A DNA stretch of 64,000 nucleotides from Patescibacteria group bacterium (lineage in GTDB: Bacteria; Patescibacteriota; Microgenomatia; UBA1400; CG1-02-47-37): positions 4,328 to 68,327 of the forward strand of contig JAYEMX010000064.1 in the NCBI GenBank assembly GCA_034718535.1. Reading direction: 5' to 3'. The translations under genes were made by a program, and so were the position numbers. The notes under the pieces were generated by a model. The model saw only the letters and a program-made list of their open reading frames with translations, was not told the DNA's origin and ran no database searches. Of this stretch, positions 4,464-55,587 are shown piece after piece (the stretch's first letter is position 1; each line of letters begins with the position of its first letter).

Positions 4464-5201
4464 TCATGTCAATATGACAGGGTCAGACCCTGTCACTGCA
4501 ATGGTGTGTTCAAACATGCCGGCCATTTGACCGTCTTTAGTAACTATAGTCCAATTATCTTTTGGGTCGGTTTTGGTGTCGCTTGAACCTTTCATGTAGA
4601 TAACCTCAATGGCAATAGTCAGGCCCTTTTTTATAATAGGGGTGTTTTCGATTTTTCCCTCAAGAAAACAGGGAATCATGGGTGGTTCGTGAAGAGTCTT
4701 TCCAATACCGTGGCCGGTTAAATTTCTGGATACATTGTAGCCGTTAGATTCAATAGTGCCTTGAATCGCTTTTGAAATATGTCCAATATGATTATTTACT
4801 TTGGCTTGTTTAATAGCCAAATCCAGGGTTTTTTGGCCGATTTCCAGAAATTTTAATTTTTGAGGATAATCAGTCGGATTACCAACAATAAAACTAATAC
4901 ATGAATCTGTATTAAAACCCTTGTAAAGCATACCAATATCAATAGAAACAATATCGCCCAGTTTTAATTTTTTATCATCGGGAATACCGTGAACCAAGCC
5001 TTCATTTAAATTAATACAGGTGGCCCAAGAATAGCCGGGTACCATGGCGAAATTAGGTTTACCACCGGCTTTTTTAATTAAAGTTTGAGCCTTAGCTTCA
5101 ATTTGACTTAATTTAATTCCGGGTTTGGATATTTTTTTTAAGTCTTGTTTTATTTGGTGTAATTTAGCACCACCTTCGGCCATTAAATTGATTTTATTCA
5201 T
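4464..5201 (-). CDS. map: Methionine aminopeptidase type I
   Basis: MAP metal-binding motifs; the last 8 codons (VTGSDPVILT) are encoded by a REP-1 palindrome. Confidence 0.9.
   Translation of the reverse strand: MNKINLMAEGGAKLHQIKQDLKKISKPGIKLSQIEAKAQTLIKKAGGKPNFAMVPGYSWATCINLNEGLVHGIPDDKKLKLGDIVSIDIGMLYKGFNTDSCISFIVGNPTDYPQKLKFLEIGQKTLDLAIKQAKVNNHIGHISKAIQGTIESNGYNVSRNLTGHGIGKTLHEPPMIPCFLEGKIENTPIIKKGLTIAIEVIYMKGSSDTKTDPKDNWTIVTKDGQMAGMFEHTIAVTGSDPVILT
4475..4495. repeat. REP-1 palindrome tgacagggtcagaccctgtca, embedded in the map 3' coding end
   Basis: Perfect 10+1+10 palindrome identical to the copies flanking RAYT-1. Confidence 0.7.
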
Positions 5202-6338: not shown

Positions 6339-6402
6339 TTAAGGTTCGGAATAAAAGGTTACGAACTCGAACTTTTTAAAGTTCGTAACCCTACAGAACC
6401 TT
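6339..6402. repeat. PAL element, composite: outer arms aaggttc/gaacctt enclose a perfect inner palindrome ggttacgaact...agttcgtaacc
   Basis: Fills the secY-adk spacer; ends 6 nt before the adk ATG. Confidence 0.6.
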
Positions 6403-7694: not shown

Positions 7695-8369
7695 TTAGGT
7701 TATTTTTTGTGATGATTTTTTCTTTTTCTTTGATGCTCCCGAAGTGCCTTTTAAGGTGACACCTTCCGGCTTCGCCGTCCCGACTCGAGATTCTCTCGTG
7801 TCTCCTGTTAAGGTCTCACCTTTTCTTCGAGGGTGAACTTTTTTCTTTTTCTTTTTGGGAGCATGTTTTTCTTTTAAGGTCTCACCTTTTCTTCGAGGGT
7901 GAACTTTTTTCTTTTTGGGAGTGATAGATGTTATTTTGCCACCAGCTTTTTTAATTTTTTTAGCGGCTGATTTTGAAACAGGCAGAGCAACATTTAAAGC
8001 AACTTTAAGATCACCATCTCCCAAGATTTTTACTGGCAAACCTTTAACTTTGACCGGTAAAATTTTGTTTTTGATTAAAGTTTTAACAGAAACAGTTTGG
8101 TTTTTCTTAAAACCGGCTAAGTGTTTTAGGTTTATAATGATTGGCTTTACCTTAACCGATTTATTTTTAAGCTTTCCGCGTAACATGGGAATTCTTCTGA
8201 TTAAGCTTTTTCTCATTGGTGTGCCTTCAAAGTAAAGAGGGACTTTACCTCTGGCTTTTTGACCTTTGGCTCCACGACCGGAAGTATGACCACCTTTACC
8301 AGAACCATAACCACGACCGACTCTTTTTTTAGATTTGGTTTTTGTTTTTGTGAGGGTGTTTAATGACAT
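7695..8369 (-). CDS. rplO: 50S ribosomal protein L15 with a Lys-rich C-terminal extension of about 75 aa
   Basis: L15 core (GRGYGSGKGGHTSGRGAKGQKAR), then a tail containing duplicated KKKKVHPRRKGETL. Confidence 0.85.
   Translation of the reverse strand: MSLNTLTKTKTKSKKRVGRGYGSGKGGHTSGRGAKGQKARGKVPLYFEGTPMRKSLIRRIPMLRGKLKNKSVKVKPIIINLKHLAGFKKNQTVSVKTLIKNKILPVKVKGLPVKILGDGDLKVALNVALPVSKSAAKKIKKAGGKITSITPKKKKVHPRRKGETLKEKHAPKKKKKKVHPRRKGETLTGDTRESRVGTAKPEGVTLKGTSGASKKKKKSSQKIT
7819..7920. repeat. Direct tandem repeat of about 50 bp (2 copies) inside the rplO 3' extension
   Basis: aaggtctcaccttttcttcgagggtgaactttttt... appears twice in tandem. Confidence 0.7.
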
Positions 8370-10928: not shown

Positions 10929-10976
10929 GTTAAGGTTCGGAACTAGAACTTCGGAAAGTTCACGAACCTTAGGTTA
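10929..10976. repeat. PAL element, canonical 48-mer gttaaggttcggaactagaacttcggaaagttcacgaaccttaggtta
   Basis: Identical to the copies at 12539 and 13606 (the 13606 copy lacks the 3' ggtta); ends 6 nt from the rplE ATG. Confidence 0.75.
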
Positions 10977-11291: not shown

Positions 11292-11662
11292 AATACCTCC
11301 GGTGCCTGAGAAGCAATTTTATTATAGCCAAGTTCTTTAATTTCTCTGGCTATCGGTCCAAAAATTCTAGTACCTTTTGGTTTTTTGTTTTCAATGTTTT
11401 CTAAAATAATAGCGGCATTATCGTCAAAACGAATATAGGAACCATCTTTTCTCGCAGTTTCTTTTTTAGTTCTAACAATGACTGCTTTAACTACTTCTCC
11501 GGACTTTATTTGAGCATGGGGTTGGGATTGAATAACAGAAGCAGTAACAATATCTCCCAAATGACCAAAACGTTTTTTTGAACCACCATGGACTAAGATA
11601 ACCCGTAGTTTTTTACCTCCGGAATTATCAGCAACTTTTAAGGTTGATCTTAATTGAATCAT
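11288..11662 (-). CDS. rplN: 50S ribosomal protein L14; start set at the internal Met MIQL
   Basis: L14 family similarity. Confidence 0.92.
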
Positions 11663-11880
11663 ATAATTTCCCAACGTTTTTTCTTACTAATCGGCTTGGA
11701 TTCTTGAATAATAACTTTATCTCCCGGTTTTAGATTAGATTTTTGATTGTGAACCAAGTAGTTTTTTCTCTTGGTGATGATTTTTTTGTAAACGGGATGA
11801 GCCCATCTTCGGATAACTTGAACTTTAGCTGTTTTTTGCATTTTGACACTGATAACAGTGGCGGTTAGTTTTTTTTTCAT
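11659..11880 (-). CDS. rpsQ: 30S ribosomal protein S17
   Basis: S17 family similarity. Confidence 0.9.
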
Positions 11881-11890
11881 AAAATAATGT

Positions 11891-11929
11891 GAAGGTTACG
11901 AACTCGAACTTCTCAAAGTTCGTAACCTT
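11891..11929. repeat. PAL element variant B (aaggttacgaact...agttcgtaacctt, 13-bp stem); overlaps the last 11 codons and stop of rpmC
   Basis: Palindrome read directly; the rpmC stop TAA lies inside the gtaacc arm. Confidence 0.65.
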
Positions 11930-12120
11930 GATTTCTCACCCATCAAAGTTTTGATGAGAGCAATTTGATAACGGGTTTTTTTAAGAATTGAGGTGTTTTT
12001 TAAAGTATTGGTTTTTATTTTTAGTTTTTGGTCGATTAAATCTTTTTTAAACTTAAGAAGATCGGTAGTTAATTCTTTGGTAGTTTTAGCTTGAAAAGCT
12101 TTTTTATCTTTTAAATTCAT
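11896..12120 (-). CDS. rpmC: 50S ribosomal protein L29 with a 3' extension ([12 protein letters not shown]) encoded by a PAL repeat
   Basis: L29 family similarity; the tail is colinear with the repeat. Confidence 0.85.
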
Positions 12121-12530
12121 CTTATGATTTTTTTTATAAATTTGGTTTTCATGGGTAATTTTTGAGTAGCAAGTCTAAATGATTCGCGGGCAATACTTTC
12201 CTCTACTCCGGCCAGTTCAAAAATAACCCGACCCGGTTTGATAACACAAACATAGCCTTCAATTTCTCCTTTACCTCCACCCATACGGACACCTGCGCCT
12301 TTTTTAGTATAGGTTTTATCGGGGAAAACCCTAATCCAAAGTTTTCCAGTTCTTTTAGTATAATGGGTGATGGCTTTTCTGGCGGCTTCAATTTGTCTAT
12401 TAGTCATCCAACCCCTACCTATAGCCTTTAAGCCATACTCTCCAAAAGAGATTTTTGAACCAAGACTGGCATTGCCCTTCATAGAGCCTCTAAAATGCTT
12501 GCGGTATTTCATTCTTTTTGGTTGTAACAT
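12117..12530 (-). CDS. rplP: 50S ribosomal protein L16
   Basis: L16 family similarity. Confidence 0.92.
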
Positions 12531-12538
12531 AGTATAAT

Positions 12539-12586
12539 GTTAAGGTTCGGAACTAGAACTTCGGAAAGTTCACGAACCTTAGGTTA
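12539..12586. repeat. PAL element, canonical 48-mer; its 3' end supplies the last codons and TAA stop of rpsC and its 5' end lies 8 nt from the rplP ATG
   Basis: Identical 48-mer to the copy at 10929. Confidence 0.75.
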
Positions 12587-13235
12587 TTTCAAGTTCTCCT
12601 TTATAAACCCATACTTTGATGCCAACATAACCAAATTTGGTAAAAGCCGGTTTTTCAAAATAATCGATGTCTGCTCTGATAGTACTAAGAGGAACACTAC
12701 CTTTTGAGTATTTTTCGGTTCGACTGATTTCAGCTCCATTAATACGACCGGCCAAAGCAATTTTTATACCCTTGGCTCCACCAGTCATAGCTCTTTCCAA
12801 AGCTTGAGATACAGCTCTTCTGTGAGGATAACGTTTAGACATTTGATCGGCAATTCTCAAAGCAATTAACCTGGATGACAAATCCGGTTTCTTAACTTCA
12901 ACCACTTCCAGTTCAAATTTAGGAGCTTTTCCTTTCTTTTTATTTAATTCCAGTTTCTTAAGTAAAATCTTCTTTAACTCTTCGATTCCCGAACCGCCAC
13001 GGCCGATGACTACACCTGGTCTTGAAACATGAAGAGTAAATTTAATAGTGTTAATGGAGCGTTCGATTTTTACTTCGGTAATACCGGCAAGTTCAAGTTT
13101 TTTAAATAAAAATTTTCTTAATTGAATGTCTTCCAGTAAGAATTTTTTGTAATCTTCTTTAGTGGCAAACCAGTTACTTGACCAAGTATAAAGAGGTCCT
13201 ATTCTAAATGATTTTGGATGTACTTTTTGTCCCAT
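12579..13235 (-). CDS. rpsC: 30S ribosomal protein S3
   Basis: KH and S3-C domains. Confidence 0.92.
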   Translation of the reverse strand: MGQKVHPKSFRIGPLYTWSSNWFATKEDYKKFLLEDIQLRKFLFKKLELAGITEVKIERSINTIKFTLHVSRPGVVIGRGGSGIEELKKILLKKLELNKKKGKAPKFELEVVEVKKPDLSSRLIALRIADQMSKRYPHRRAVSQALERAMTGGAKGIKIALAGRINGAEISRTEKYSKGSVPLSTIRADIDYFEKPAFTKFGYVGIKVWVYKGELEIT

Positions 13236-13605: not shown

Positions 13606-13648
13606 GTTAAGGTTCGGAACTAGAACTTCGGAAAGTTCACGAACCTTA
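13606..13648. repeat. PAL element, canonical copy, 3 nt from the rplV ATG
   Basis: Identical to the 10929 and 12539 copies over the first 43 nt; lacks the 3' ggtta. Confidence 0.75.
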
Positions 13649-16553: not shown

Positions 16554-16862
16554 TTACATTCTAATTTCAATACCAACTCCGGCGGGCAGTTCCAGGTGCA
16601 TTAAACTATCTATAGTTTTGTCTGTAGAATCGATTATATCTACCAATCTTTTATGGGTAAGTAGTTGAAAGTGTTCTCTAGCATCTTTGTCCGCATGTGG
16701 GCTAGTGGTAACACAAACCAGTTTTCTTTTGGTTGGCAGAGGAATGGGTCCAATAACTTTAGCTCCGGTCGAAAGAGCGGTATCAAGTATTTTTTGGCAA
16801 CACTCATCTATGATCCTATGATCATAAGATTTTAATCTGATTCTGATTCTACCTTTTGGCAT
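16554..16862 (-). CDS. rpsJ: 30S ribosomal protein S10; start at the internal MPKGRIRIRL, not the extended ORF-track start
   Basis: S10 family similarity; upstream extension has no homology and covers leader repeats. Confidence 0.88.
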   Translation of the reverse strand: MPKGRIRIRLKSYDHRIIDECCQKILDTALSTGAKVIGPIPLPTKRKLVCVTTSPHADKDAREHFQLLTHKRLVDIIDSTDKTIDSLMHLELPAGVGIEIRM

Positions 16863-16940
16863 AATATAATAGTGACACGGTGACACATAGTGACACGGTT
16901 TTATCAAGATAAGAAGAGCCCGAAGGCTCGTCTTATTCAA
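16863..16940 (-). promoter_or_regulatory. Candidate S10-operon leader: 10-bp stem hairpin with UUCG tetraloop (aagacgagcc-uucg-ggcucuucuu), then three direct GUGUCAC repeats running up to the rpsJ AUG
   Basis: Read on the minus strand; in other bacteria this position holds the L4-responsive S10 leader. Confidence 0.35.
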
Positions 16941-16952
16941 ATTTTTAATTAT

Positions 16953-16996
16953 GTTAAGGTTCGGAACTTTTGAACACCTAAGAGTTCACGAACCTT
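16953..16996. repeat. PAL element variant, just 3' of the tuf stop
   Basis: gttaaggttcggaac...gttcacgaacctt arms. Confidence 0.65.
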
Positions 16997-20546: not shown

Positions 20547-20574
20547 CTAGAGGAAACCTGTAAAATCCAGGTGG

Positions 20575-20597
20575 CCTACAAGGAGAGTCCTTGTAGG
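20575..20597. repeat. REP-2 palindrome cctacaaggagagtccttgtagg, 10 nt 3' of the rpsG stop, with a partial duplicated arm (ttttgtaggttt)
   Basis: Same 23-mer as the REP-2 copy after the RAYT-2 stop (55548..55574) and related to the other RAYT-2 copies. Confidence 0.7.
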
Positions 20598-20607
20598 TTT
20601 TGTAGGT

Positions 20608-35702: not shown

Positions 35703-36845
35703 TTATTGTTTTTGCAATTTTCCTACTGTGATAATAACATCATATTCATTATCATCAGTCAAGGGTGTTTGGTTTTTAATGAGATCATAATCTGAATTTA
35801 GAGATCTTTCTATAATTGTCCAAACAGTTTCCGGAGTATTTGTTTTTAACTGAACAGAGGTTTTTTGGTGATCAAGTTCATCGGCGTTGTCAGCTATGAT
35901 TTCCACAAAGTCTTTGGCCTCTAAAATATCCTTGACTGTGCCAGCTACACCCCTACCTCCAGTACCATTTAGGACTAAAATTTTGTAGTCTGATAGAGTT
36001 ACTTCTATCTCCGGTTCTGGCGAGGGTGAAGGCGAGGGTGAAGGAGTTGGGTTTGGAGAAGCTACTATGAGGGGTGAAGGCGAGGGTTTTAGGTTGTTTT
36101 GCAGAGCATTTCTTTGAACTAAAATACCACCAGTGATGAGGGCGCCTAGGGTTAAGGTGACAATAAAAGCAATGATGAGAGTTTTGTTCGGTTTTGGTTT
36201 TAATTTCTTAGGTTCCGAACTATCCTTCACTTCGTTGCGGACCGCTGGAAGTTCGGAACTTTGAGACTTTGATGGTTTAAGTTTGGTGGGTGATAGTTTT
36301 TTAAGAGAAAGGTTAAGAACTTTTTCGTCTCTACCTTTTAAGTCTTTTTTTAAAGCAAGGCCGATGACTGGATTTGGATTGCGAATTTTTGAGATGGTTT
36401 TTGGTTCGATGGCTTGAAGTTTTAAGTTGGCATCAACAAGAGCTTGAGAGATAAGGGTAAAGATTGATTTGACTGGAGCAAAGGCAATAATTTGTTTGTC
36501 TGATTGAGTTTTTCGACCAGTTTCCTTAAAATCCCAGTTTTCATTTTCTAGAATTTCTGGAATTTCGGGTTTGATTTTTTCTTCGATTAACTTTCGCTCA
36601 TCTTTAACTTTAGTGTTAAAGGGGATGTTTAAACTTAAGACATATGATAATTCATCTGAAAGTAAAATTCTGATTGATTTAGTTTTAAGTTGTTTTTTTA
36701 CCTGAACAAAGGCTTTATCCAAAGAGTCTTTACTCCAAGTAATTTCATCTGACTTAATGATGGCAGGGGCCTTACCTGTCTTAACTAGAACAGCTTTAAG
36801 TTTGTCTTTGGTTAGATAGATGATGGGAATTTTTTTGTTAAACAT
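35703..36845 (-). CDS. Hypothetical membrane protein with a PSPSP linker and a C-terminal LytR_C-like domain; carries an in-frame PAL repeat
   Basis: TM LIIAFIVTLTLGALITGGILV; (SP)n linker; C-terminal segment resembles the LytR/CpsA/Psr C-terminal domain. Confidence 0.35.
   Translation of the reverse strand: MFNKKIPIIYLTKDKLKAVLVKTGKAPAIIKSDEITWSKDSLDKAFVQVKKQLKTKSIRILLSDELSYVLSLNIPFNTKVKDERKLIEEKIKPEIPEILENENWDFKETGRKTQSDKQIIAFAPVKSIFTLISQALVDANLKLQAIEPKTISKIRNPNPVIGLALKKDLKGRDEKVLNLSLKKLSPTKLKPSKSQSSELPAVRNEVKDSSEPKKLKPKPNKTLIIAFIVTLTLGALITGGILVQRNALQNNLKPSPSPLIVASPNPTPSPSPSPSPEPEIEVTLSDYKILVLNGTGGRGVAGTVKDILEAKDFVEIIADNADELDHQKTSVQLKTNTPETVWTIIERSLNSDYDLIKNQTPLTDDNEYDVIITVGKLQKQ
36209..36261. 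repeat. PAL element variant (ggttccgaac...gttcggaac) inside the CDS at 35703..36845
   Basis: Inverted arms with a 30-nt spacer, in-frame. Confidence 0.5.
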
Positions 36846-37287: not shown

Positions 37288-37322
37288 ATGACAGTGACAG
37301 GGTCAGACCCTGTCACTGTCAT
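37288..37322. repeat. REP-1 extended perfect palindrome (35 nt: atgacagtgacagggtc a gaccctgtcactgtcat) upstream of RAYT-1
   Basis: Perfect 17+1+17 inverted repeat. Confidence 0.75.
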
Positions 37323-37334
37323 GTTCCCTGTGAT

Positions 37335-38030
37335 ATGATTATTAGGATGCCATCAAAGAATAGGAATAAAGTTTATAAAGAAAACGGATATTATCATGTT
37401 TATAATCGTGGGGTTGATAAACGAAAAATTTTTATGGATGAACAAGATTATGCTGTTTTTTTGCATTTACTAAAGTATTATCTTTCTCCACCCAGCAAAG
37501 AAGACAAACATCCTTTGTCGGATACTTCTACAGCTGTGATTAGGCCTAGGCCAATTGAAAATTTACATCAAGAGGTTAATTTACTTGCTTATTGTTTGAT
37601 GCCAAACCATTTTCATTTATTGATAAAACAAAAAAGTATTGATGGTATGACAAAACTAATTCATAAACTACTAACTATTTATTCAATGTATTTTAATAGG
37701 CGTCATAAACGTATTGGCCATTTGTTTCAAGGTTGTTATAAGGCAGTTTTAGCTGATAATGACGAGCAGGTTTTGCATCTATCTCGATATATACACCTTA
37801 ATCCAGTTAAGCTGACAGGGTCTGACCCTGTCAGGTGGCCATACTCAAGTTTGGCTTATTATTTAGGGGAGAAAACTGCTAAGTGGGTGAAACCTAAAGA
37901 AATACTTGAGTGTTTTGAAAAGATAGAAAAGAATAAACTAACAAATAAAAACTACAATTCTTATAAAGAATTTGTTTTTGACGATAAAAAAGATTCTAAA
38001 GAAACTGTTGGCAGGTTTTCTATTGATTGA
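37335..38030 (+). mobile_element. RAYT-type HUH tyrosine transposase (IS200/IS605 TnpA-like, Y1). The likely true start is MPSKN at 37347, matching the N-terminus of RAYT-2.
   Basis: YHVYNRG...LMPNHFHLL (HUH)...SRYIHLNPVK (catalytic Tyr); flanked by REP-1 copies and carrying one internally. Confidence 0.8.
37812..37834. repeat. REP-1 palindrome ctgacagggtctgaccctgtcag inside the RAYT-1 CDS, encoding LTGSDPVR
   Basis: Perfect palindrome, in-frame. Confidence 0.7.
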
Positions 38031-38048
38031 CAGGGTCAGACCCTGTCA
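38028..38048. repeat. REP-1 palindrome; its first 3 nt are the RAYT-1 TGA stop
   Basis: tgacagggtcagaccctgtca. Confidence 0.75.
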
Positions 38049-38063
38049 GTGGTGTATTTCTTT

Positions 38064-40859: not shown

Positions 40860-40937
40860 AGGTTCCGAACTAAAATATCGGAAACCTGCCTGCCATGCCT
40901 ATCGGCAGGTAAACCGGCAAGGCAGGGTTCGGAACCT
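40860..40937. repeat. Long PAL variant: perfect outer arms aggttccgaac/gttcggaacct enclose a 55-nt GC-rich insert with nested inverted repeats (cctgcc...ggcagg)
   Basis: Read directly; lies in the rnj-ftsK spacer. Confidence 0.55.
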
Positions 40938-40942
40938 AAAAG

Positions 40943-54818: not shown

Positions 54819-54847
54819 TTAGTGTCAAGGATTGTTTTGGCAATAAA

Positions 54848-54870
54848 CCTACAAGGAGAGTCCTTGAAGG
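54848..54870. repeat. REP-2 palindrome (cctacaaggagagtccttgaagg) upstream of RAYT-2
   Basis: Imperfect inverted arms around the agag centre. Confidence 0.65.
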
Positions 54871-55048
54871 CTTATACTTGAGGGTGTATACTGAATTTAA
54901 TGCCTTCAAAAAATGCTTTAAAAATCTATAAAGAAGATTCTTATTATCATATTTATAATCGAGGAGTGGCTAAGGCAAATATTTTTAAAGACAAAAAGGA
55001 TTATAAAGTTTTTCTTGATTATTTGAAAATATATTTATCTCCTGTCGA

Positions 55049-55071
55049 CCTACAAGGAGAGTCCTTGAAGG
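55049..55071. repeat. REP-2 copy inside the RAYT-2 CDS (encodes DLQGESLKV)
   Basis: cctacaaggagagtccttgaagg in-frame. Confidence 0.65.
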
Positions 55072-55352
55072 TTTCACCATCAAGAGAATTGAAAAATTAT
55101 TCAGATGAAATTATCTTGGTTGCTTATTGCTTAATGCCAAACCATTTTCACTTATTAATTCATCAAAAAAATAAGGATTCTATTAATTACTTTATGAGAT
55201 CTTTGGCTACAAAATATTCAAGATATTTTAATACTAGATATGATAGGGTTGGCCCATTATTTCAAGGTGTTTATAAAGCTGTTAAGGTTGACAATGAAGA
55301 TCAGTTGGTTTATTTGACTAAATATATTCATCGAAATCCTATTAATATCCTA

Positions 55353-55375
55353 CCTACGAGGAGAGTCCTTGTAGG
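55353..55375. repeat. REP-2 copy inside the RAYT-2 CDS (encodes LPTRRVLVGY), directly after the NPI(N) motif
   Basis: cctacgaggagagtccttgtagg in-frame. Confidence 0.65.
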
Positions 55376-55547
55376 TTATAAATACTCTAGTTATGGAAAT
55401 TACTTGGGATTATTTAAACAGGTCTGGGTAAAGCCAAATATGATTCTTGGATTGTTTTCTGCCTCTAATAAGTTATTTAGTTATAAAAGTTTTGTGGAAG
55501 AATTAGAAGAAGATTATAGTTCTATAAATAAAATTGTTCTTGATTAG

Positions 55548-55574
55548 CACCTACAAGGAGAGTCCTTGTAGGTG
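55548..55574. repeat. REP-2 perfect palindrome cacctacaaggagagtccttgtaggtg, 1 nt after the RAYT-2 TAG stop, followed by a partial arm duplication
   Basis: Read directly. Confidence 0.75.
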
Positions 55575-55587
55575 CTTGTAGGTTGAG

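Follow-up and report, generated by a model that had tools for sequence, protein, structure and literature searches.

A REPIN-Like Palindromic Repeat Probably Absorbed into the 3′ End of the Gene for Ribosomal Protein L29 in a Patescibacteria Bacterium

Introduction

The genes coding for ribosomal proteins L29 and S3 of a Patescibacteria group bacterium both terminate at copies of a palindromic repeat, named PAL in this work. How much of the two genes is made of the repeat, and how could such an element come to lie at the end of essential genes? The original prediction, made from the DNA letters, was that both genes had their 3′ ends overwritten. It is addressed here in the window, by which we mean the whole stretch of 64,000 nucleotides of contig JAYEMX010000064.1 that was analysed. 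It comes from a MAG of the Patescibacteria (CPR), a group of tiny uncultured bacteria. The window is AT-rich (35% GC) and its minus strand carries, between positions 476 and 28620, the gene series rpoBC-S12-S7-fusA-tuf-S10-spc-alpha. The NCBI entry of the L29 protein is [quoted passage not shown], from a 69.8-kb contig.

Organization and Folding of the Repeat

A profile search (nhmmer) identified six full PAL copies in the window with E values of 1.7e-13 to 5.4e-10 (Table 1). An exact PAL 39-mer is found three times, against none expected from 100 shuffles. The element is built of 12-nt arms around a 14-nt spacer, and its length is ~38 nt, or ~60 nt when the flanks are included. The coding strand of copy c3 (11929-11892) reads AAGGTTACGAACTTTGAGAAGTTCGAGTTCGTAACCTT and is laid out as AAGGTTACGAAC-TTTGAGAAGTTCGA-GTTCGTAACCTT, its 12-nt arms pairing perfectly. 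Three types of arms were found (CG/CG, AC/GT and CC/GG), with perfect complementarity in all. The B-type unit has three of its six frames open while the other three contain stops, as read directly from the sequence. A TAA built into the repeat closes one open frame, and A-type copies have a TAA at their start.

Table 1. Position of the genes, stop codons and PAL-related elements of the window.
Feature	Position	Strand	Remarks
rpmC (L29)	11896..12120	-	74 aa; native to ~residue 64, then repeat-encoded tail
L29 TAA stop	11896..11898	-	within the 3′ arm of the repeat
rpsQ (S17)	11659..11880	-	ATG 11 nt past PAL c3
rpsC (S3)	12579..13235	-	218 aa; length equal to orthologs
rpsC TAA stop	12579..12581	-	paired within the predicted PAL stem
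rplP (L16)	12117..12530	-	ATG 11 nt past PAL c4
PAL c1	6341..6402	-	secY-adk; composite: B-type PAL 6355-6392 nested in outer A-type arms
PAL c2 (A-type)	10932..10970	-	between L24 and L5
PAL c3 (B-type arms AAGGTTACGAAC / GTTCGTAACCTT)	11892..11929	-	L29 residues 65-74 + TAA
PAL c4 (A-type arms AAGGTTCGTGAAC / GTTCCGAACCTT)	12542..12580	-	conserved unit with flanks 12528-12591
PAL c5 (A-type)	13609..13647	-	between S19 and L22
PAL c6 (A-type arms, divergent loop)	16957..16995	-	10 nt past the tuf stop
Long composite hairpin, C-type PAL arms AGGTTCCGAAC ... GTTCGGAACCT	40860..40940		intergenic; different interior
Decayed PAL-arm pair	36210..36266	-	in frame within ORF 35703-36845 (…SSELPAVRNEVKDSSEPK…)

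The predicted PAL folds range from −15 to −25 kcal/mol (z −3.7 to −5.9). RNAalifold run on a MAFFT alignment of the PAL variants returned only an inner 4-bp helix, because the extra T of the A-type arms shifts the arms out of register. In view of this register problem, covariation of the arms was established by inspecting the sequences themselves. One orthologous purB site shows a compensatory double change between the arms of two loci (L019 and L022) whose flanks are identical. PAL was also considered as an intrinsic terminator and discarded: no T-run follows any copy and the terminator scan flagged none of them.

The composite hairpin with C-type arms is a longer member of the PAL arm family. 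It spans 80 nt with a folding energy of −44 kcal/mol (z −7), and its GC-rich inner palindrome has the form CCTGCC...GGCAGG. The ORF carrying the decayed arm pair codes on the minus strand for a 380-amino acid membrane-anchored protein, and the pair falls in a low-complexity linker.

The 3′ End of the L29 Gene

The rpmC gene ends with ...GAG AAA TCA AGG TTA CGA ACT TTG AGA AGT TCG AGT TCG TAA. PAL contributes to it the third base of Ser64, ten full codons and the TAA (11898-11896), which lies inside the GTAACC arm of a B-type copy, the sequence being as first noted. The attribution of the last 11 L29 residues to the repeat was right about a repeat-encoded tail but not about its length: 12 letters had been listed, while the true count is ten full codons.

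Five relatives of L29 were found. Two repeat-free orthologs (P0003, from locus L007, and P0004) are 65 amino acids long and end with ...IALIKTIIQSKAK followed by TAA, the ATG of S17 being found 2 nt later. The window gene matches them codon-for-codon up to approximately residue 64, where the repeat begins. Relative to these orthologs its native stop and about two codons are replaced and ten residues are gained. Judged from this alignment, the L29-S17 junction of P0003 and P0004 is the empty site. The comparison supports that, at the gene level, the repeat gave L29 a ten-residue tail and its stop codon. It also bears out the claim that this 3′ end was overwritten: orthologs without the repeat stop about nine residues earlier and lack the tail through which the window protein runs on.

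A further relative, P0005, carries the fusion at a different place. It is encoded in the Beckwithbacteria MAGs GCA_018817335 and GCA_043809545 and in a JGI contig (L002-L004). The protein has ~70% identity to the window L29 and is 65 amino acids long, ending with RYQINI and the ten-residue PAL peptide. The same B-type repeat is read in the same frame and has the same CAC 3′ flank, and the junction is located about nine codons earlier than in the window; the repeat there therefore substitutes for the native L29 C-terminus. The relative P0002 (locus L005) has an unrelated L29 ending, its protein being 79 amino acids long. This tail was examined as a possible decayed PAL and the idea was rejected, since its local alignment is no better than those of shuffles.

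The direction of the exchange might also be reversed, the tail being the native L29 C-terminus and PAL copies elsewhere duplicates of the 3′ end of its gene. On inspection of the alignment, RLRTL does loosely resemble the native basic/hydrophobic helix motif (I/V)(K/R)T(L/I). However, the window L29 has a native IKTLM motif besides the tail, which is missing in three ortholog lineages. Furthermore, most copies in relatives are found far from rpmC, and the arms match palindromes flanking a RAYT-like gene (see below). We regard such a reversal as very improbable.

Palindromes can misassemble and hairpins behind genes are often terminators. The junctions might be assembly or sequencing artefacts, or the hairpins ordinary intrinsic terminators, an explanation that is scarcely credible here. 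An independent Logan assembly contig (L001) has an L29-repeat junction identical to the one in the window, and three other assemblies, of a relative, have the L29-PAL fusion as well, which excludes the assembly error contemplated in the original prediction. A role in termination is at odds with copies found inside an operon directly before the start codons of essential genes; the PAL hairpin is followed by AACATTATAC...ATG within the operon.

AlphaFold predicts the L29 tail, at low confidence, as a prolongation of helix 2; across the 14 C-terminal residues pLDDT drops to 64 and 54. The model hints weakly at a peripheral, tolerated appendage, with which it would be consistent.

The 3′ End of the S3 Gene

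The stop of rpsC (12581-12579) is the TAA of TAAGGTTCG, and PAL c4 starts with the AA of this TAA. The codons ATA ACC that precede the stop are outside the palindrome. The same motif (ATAACCTAAGG) recurs at the flank of PAL c2 and of a PAL remnant in L007, and an S3 ortholog at an empty site likewise has an AT-rich end (ATATAAAATAA). The ATA ACC codons are possibly part of the repeat or the mark of an AT-rich target preference.

S3 has 218 amino acids in all four genomes compared (window, L002, L005 and L007), with or without the repeat. In L005 there is no repeat and the gene ends with TAA, 7 nt and the next ATG, while L007 has only a half-arm remnant (TAACCTAAGGTTACGAACTTAATTATG). L002 features a full PAL in opposite orientation at its S3-L16 junction, and a TAA of PAL is again the S3 stop. 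The last four residues differ across the four genomes (LEIT, LNIV, INIK, KDLK). Given this constant length and the variable last residues, the repeat gives S3 its stop and at most two codons, and causes neither truncation nor extension. Overwriting of the S3 gene finds little support, the protein of L005 having the same length without any repeat. The narrower claim that PAL supplies the final codons and the TAA keeps some weak support from the stop located in the stem, both in the window and in L002, but the protein length is unchanged and the contribution of codons uncertain.

Distribution of PAL and Its Presence Within Other Genes

A scan of species-representative genomes yielded 14 exact matches to the PAL core on eight contigs of one Beckwithbacteria MAG, a second MAG with five core matches/contigs, and two contigs labelled Pseudomonadales. 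Another 18 PAL loci were identified by a metagenome scan. An identical 34-nt core is found at 16 distinct sites, and most copies lie between a stop codon and the next start codon. From this distribution of its sequence, PAL is a dispersed palindromic element that is not specific of the ribosomal operon. Its presentation as a local curiosity did not survive these scans, PAL being found genome-wide and also inside other housekeeping genes. The two contigs labelled ‘uncultured Pseudomonadales’ (L019, L022) have 44–45% GC, and in both the same PAL core lies within PurB. An error of binning or labelling is a more probable reason than a true presence of PAL in Pseudomonadales.

The same ribosomal protein junctions are patchily occupied among four genomes whose S3 genes have 78–85% nucleotide identity. 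When filled and empty sites were compared, neither a clean target-site duplication nor an excision footprint emerged, the flanks having diverged.

PAL copies located inside genes maintain an open frame every time (host families were confirmed with Pfam). The open anti-sense frame codes for G[Y/S] followed by ten residues and is found in RecF, a GT4 glycosyltransferase, PurB and Maf. The PAL-derived stretch has 13 residues in both RecF and the glycosyltransferase. PurB has its insert close to the N-terminus in L027 and L019, and close to the C-terminus in L019 and L022; a 650-amino acid protein contains the PAL-derived QVPNFKKFEFGTF. In the Beckwithbacteria MAG, the RNase P protein has an 11-residue C-terminal PAL end together with its stop, the tail being the same as in L29. 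In an RNase H-like gene and in tsaD the stop is a TAA that abuts a PAL copy. A search of concatenated PAL peptides against a database of 5.8 billion proteins gave three candidates, none of them scoring, such short peptides being below the reach of the tool. TsaD of the Beckwithbacteria MAG (L016, 4861-6231) also has two copies of an inserted peptide, TPGVKPACAGREVPTPGVK, which from its sequence looks like another palindromic repeat family read in frame.

All six short-form copies of the window are found between genes or on gene ends, in sense orientation and in the ribosomal protein cluster only (tuf to adk, 11 of 64 kb), an arrangement that could mean selection for an RNA role rather than neutral spread. 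Five of the six are followed by the next ATG at a distance of 6–11 nt. Stable hairpins with covarying arms, and the location of four of the 14 exact matches of the Beckwithbacteria MAG in its ribosomal protein cluster, go in the same direction. PAL would then be primarily a selected intercistronic RNA hairpin (for RNase processing or stabilisation, or for translational coupling) whose overlap with L29 and S3 is a by-product of position. This is unlikely, as three of the four copies of the L002 cluster have the opposite orientation, among them the copy of the same S3-L16 junction, and close relatives lack PAL at the same junctions, having spacers of 2–7 nt instead. Copies are found as well within the coding sequences of RecF, PurB, Maf and GT4 and beside unrelated genes. 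An Rfam scan of the whole window yielded no family at gathering score; PAL is therefore not a known RNA family. An RNA role could nevertheless be a secondary, co-opted function of the element.

Association with Y1 Transposase Genes

Two RAYT-like Y1 (PF01797) genes are present in the window. Both have a palindrome family of their own on their flanks and also, in frame, inside the gene. These palindromes are other than PAL, and no RAYT-like gene with PAL arms is present in the window. In the region 54839-55575, which holds the Y1 gene at 54900-55547 (+), the GTAG-containing palindrome CCTACAAGGAGAGTCCTTGTAGG is present four times in the same orientation. One copy precedes the gene by ~30 nt, another directly follows its stop, and the remaining two are read in frame within it (coding for DLQGESLKV and LPTRRVLVGY). 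The same palindrome occurs past S9 (438-472) and between S7 and fusA (20566-20600). The second Y1 gene (37335-38030, +; region 37295-38056) has the palindrome TGACAGGGTCAGACCCTGTCA upstream, in frame (LTGSDPV) and at the stop. Its homologs have the internal palindrome at conserved positions, with a sequence that co-varies with the flanking one. These sequences suggest that CPR RAYT genes carry their own REP in frame. A palindrome TGACAGGGTCTGACCCTGTCA at 4475-4503 encodes VTGSDPV within the C-terminus of methionine aminopeptidase (gene map, 4464-5201, minus strand). The same DNA is found in the relative L002, and may be either a repeat invasion or a conserved motif of the enzyme.

A third Y1 subfamily adjoins PAL copies in relatives (L012) and has 1391 Patescibacteria hits at E<=1e-10. 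Its genes occupy a syntenic position and their palindromes are built on AGGTT(C/A)(G/C)GAACCT. The Y1 gene P0029 (L042), from the PAL-rich Beckwithbacteria MAG JBDRQW, has AGGTTCGTAACCTT (GGTTCGTAACCTT) 38 nt upstream, ATTCGTAACCTT (TTCGTAACCTT) just past its stop and AAGGTTACGAACCT in frame inside (KVTNL). The palindromes match both arms of B-type PAL (right and left) at 12 of 12 nt. Sister RAYT-like genes carry the A and C arm variants, read as VRN and VPN peptides. The identity between PAL arms and the palindromes of the RAYT-like gene points to a REPIN-like element, one whose behaviour in coding sequences resembles that of the Rickettsia palindromic elements. Arm sites form 28 inverted doublets versus 19 unpaired sites in the loci of a relative, and seven versus two in the window.

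The best NCBIfam match of the Y1 proteins is NF047646 (REP_Tyr_transpos), with E values of 1e-10 to 1e-13 and 40–49 bits, below the cutoff of 80; the IS200 model is far weaker, and the proteins match the Pfam Y1_Tnp model. From the identity of the PAL arms with the palindromes around the RAYT-like gene, we infer that the repeat would be mobilised by that Y1 transposase.

Relationship to Known Repeats

The definition of REPINs and of their RAYTs (REP-associated tyrosine transposases) comes from Pseudomonas and E. coli (PMC3116915, PMC2817692). REPINs are inverted REP doublets that form hairpins with compensatory arm changes, and there are several types, each with its own RAYT (PMC3116915). PAL is similarly composed of a short conserved arm, doubled in inverted orientation on either side of a spacer; it forms a hairpin and shows compensatory arm changes. 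Several arm types are found in one genome, each matching a single-copy, syntenic, palindrome-flanked Y1 gene, and doublets outnumber singlets. PAL differs from REPINs by its much shorter length (38 nt) and by arms devoid of the GTAG/CGTC tag that most REPs have (PMC3733652). Note that GTAG is found in the D2 palindrome of the window, which is unrelated to PAL. Unlike REPs, PAL is not restricted to extragenic DNA, being read in frame inside genes and supplying stop codons. Tens of PAL copies were sampled, versus the hundreds typical of REPs. The PAL-type Y1 genes also depart from RAYT genes by having their own palindrome in frame and by scoring under the curated RAYT cutoff.

Rickettsia palindromic elements (RPEs) are in-frame insertions in many genes of their host (PMC10969869). 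PAL shares with them the insertion of in-frame palindromes that add a conserved peptide to unrelated housekeeping proteins, the filled and empty sites among close relatives and hosts with small, reduced genomes. PAL is distinguished by its 38 nt versus ~100–150 bp for RPEs and by its CPR host as opposed to Alphaproteobacteria, and would be unrelated to RPEs in sequence. It also serves as a C-terminal tail plus stop, and has arms matching the flanks of a RAYT-like gene, whereas RPEs are not known to have a linked transposase. Mycobacterial interspersed repetitive units (MIRUs) occupy intercistronic operon spacers, where they run into the stop codon of one cistron and the start codon of the next (PMC3184786), as do PAL ends; they differ by their tandem arrays without hairpin palindromes and by their unrelated hosts and sequences. 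When compared to MITEs, PAL has inverted arms, no clean duplication at filled versus empty sites and no parent IS seen.

Repeat-ORF fusions, including 3′ extensions, have been described with ERIC, BOX/RUP and Neisseria elements (PMC3184786). The ‘unusual tolerance’ first attributed to these genes is correct in that a core ribosomal host is uncommon, but it is overstated as a principle considering the fusions already described (PMC3184786, PMC10969869). PAL adds a further example, from a new lineage, to a known route by which selfish repeats reshape genes. To our knowledge, core ribosomal proteins are not among the reported hosts of repeat-ORF 3′ fusions. No description of such elements in Patescibacteria was found in an incomplete literature search, which is absence of evidence only.

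Proposed Origin of the Gene Ends

PAL copies are probably REPIN-like hairpin repeats of Beckwithbacteria-like CPR genomes that were absorbed into gene 3′ ends. They would colonise the tiny spacers between genes of operons, and coding sequences as well, being moved by the Y1 transposase through single-stranded hairpins. Because of its open frames, built-in TAA and leading TAA, a copy at the 3′ end of a gene can be absorbed into the ORF. In L29 the repeat has probably taken the place of the native stop and of about the two last codons, read-through to the TAA of the 3′ arm adding the tail. In S3 the leading TAA would act as stop, leaving the protein length unaltered. The tails are presumably translated, and tolerated because the L29 C-terminus is peripheral, while the folded hairpin might hold stop and start near enough for translational coupling.

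More tentatively, and with some doubt on our part, PAL could be a REPIN lineage whose coding-compatible sequence suits ultra-compact CPR genomes, moved by RAYT-like Y1 transposases whose genes bear their own REP in frame, some copies having been co-opted. Three open frames (one coding for a helix-like peptide), the built-in TAA and the leading TAA would allow persistence in operons and ORFs, core ribosomal proteins included, of CPR genomes, where extragenic DNA is nearly absent. The copies enriched in the ribosomal operon may then be intercistronic mRNA hairpins.

Residues derived from a selfish repeat appear even in universally conserved ribosomal proteins of minimal CPR genomes, and in one lineage the native L29 C-terminus is wholly replaced by the repeat. 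We know of no case in which the spread of RPE-like elements was tied to an enzyme. The match of PAL arms with a specific RAYT-like gene in the same genome makes the spread of in-frame palindromes testable. If PAL is indeed such a coding-compatible REPIN lineage moved by RAYT-like enzymes, in-frame palindromes of the RPE kind would for the first time be connected with one particular family of transposases. For annotation and phylogenomics, PAL-type tails and 12–13-residue inserts (G[Y/S] plus ten residues) of CPR proteins are to be considered repeat-derived and not lineage-specific features.

Other Repeats near the Ribosomal Genes

A hairpin rich in GC (GAGCCTTCGGGCTC) lies between PAL c6 and the S10 gene, in the region 16861-16945; it resembles a terminator and has a T-rich sequence behind it. 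Past it, just upstream of the S10 start, are three direct repeats of the type GTGTCAC(C/T)(G/A)TGTCAC. In the relative L002 this place is occupied by another pair of hairpins (CACTCCCGGAGTG). The L15 gene (7695-8369, minus strand) contains at 7805-7916 a 46-nt direct repeat with 98% identity between copies that are 66 nt apart. It is located in the C-terminal extension of the protein, where it duplicates the peptide KKKKVHPRRKGETL.
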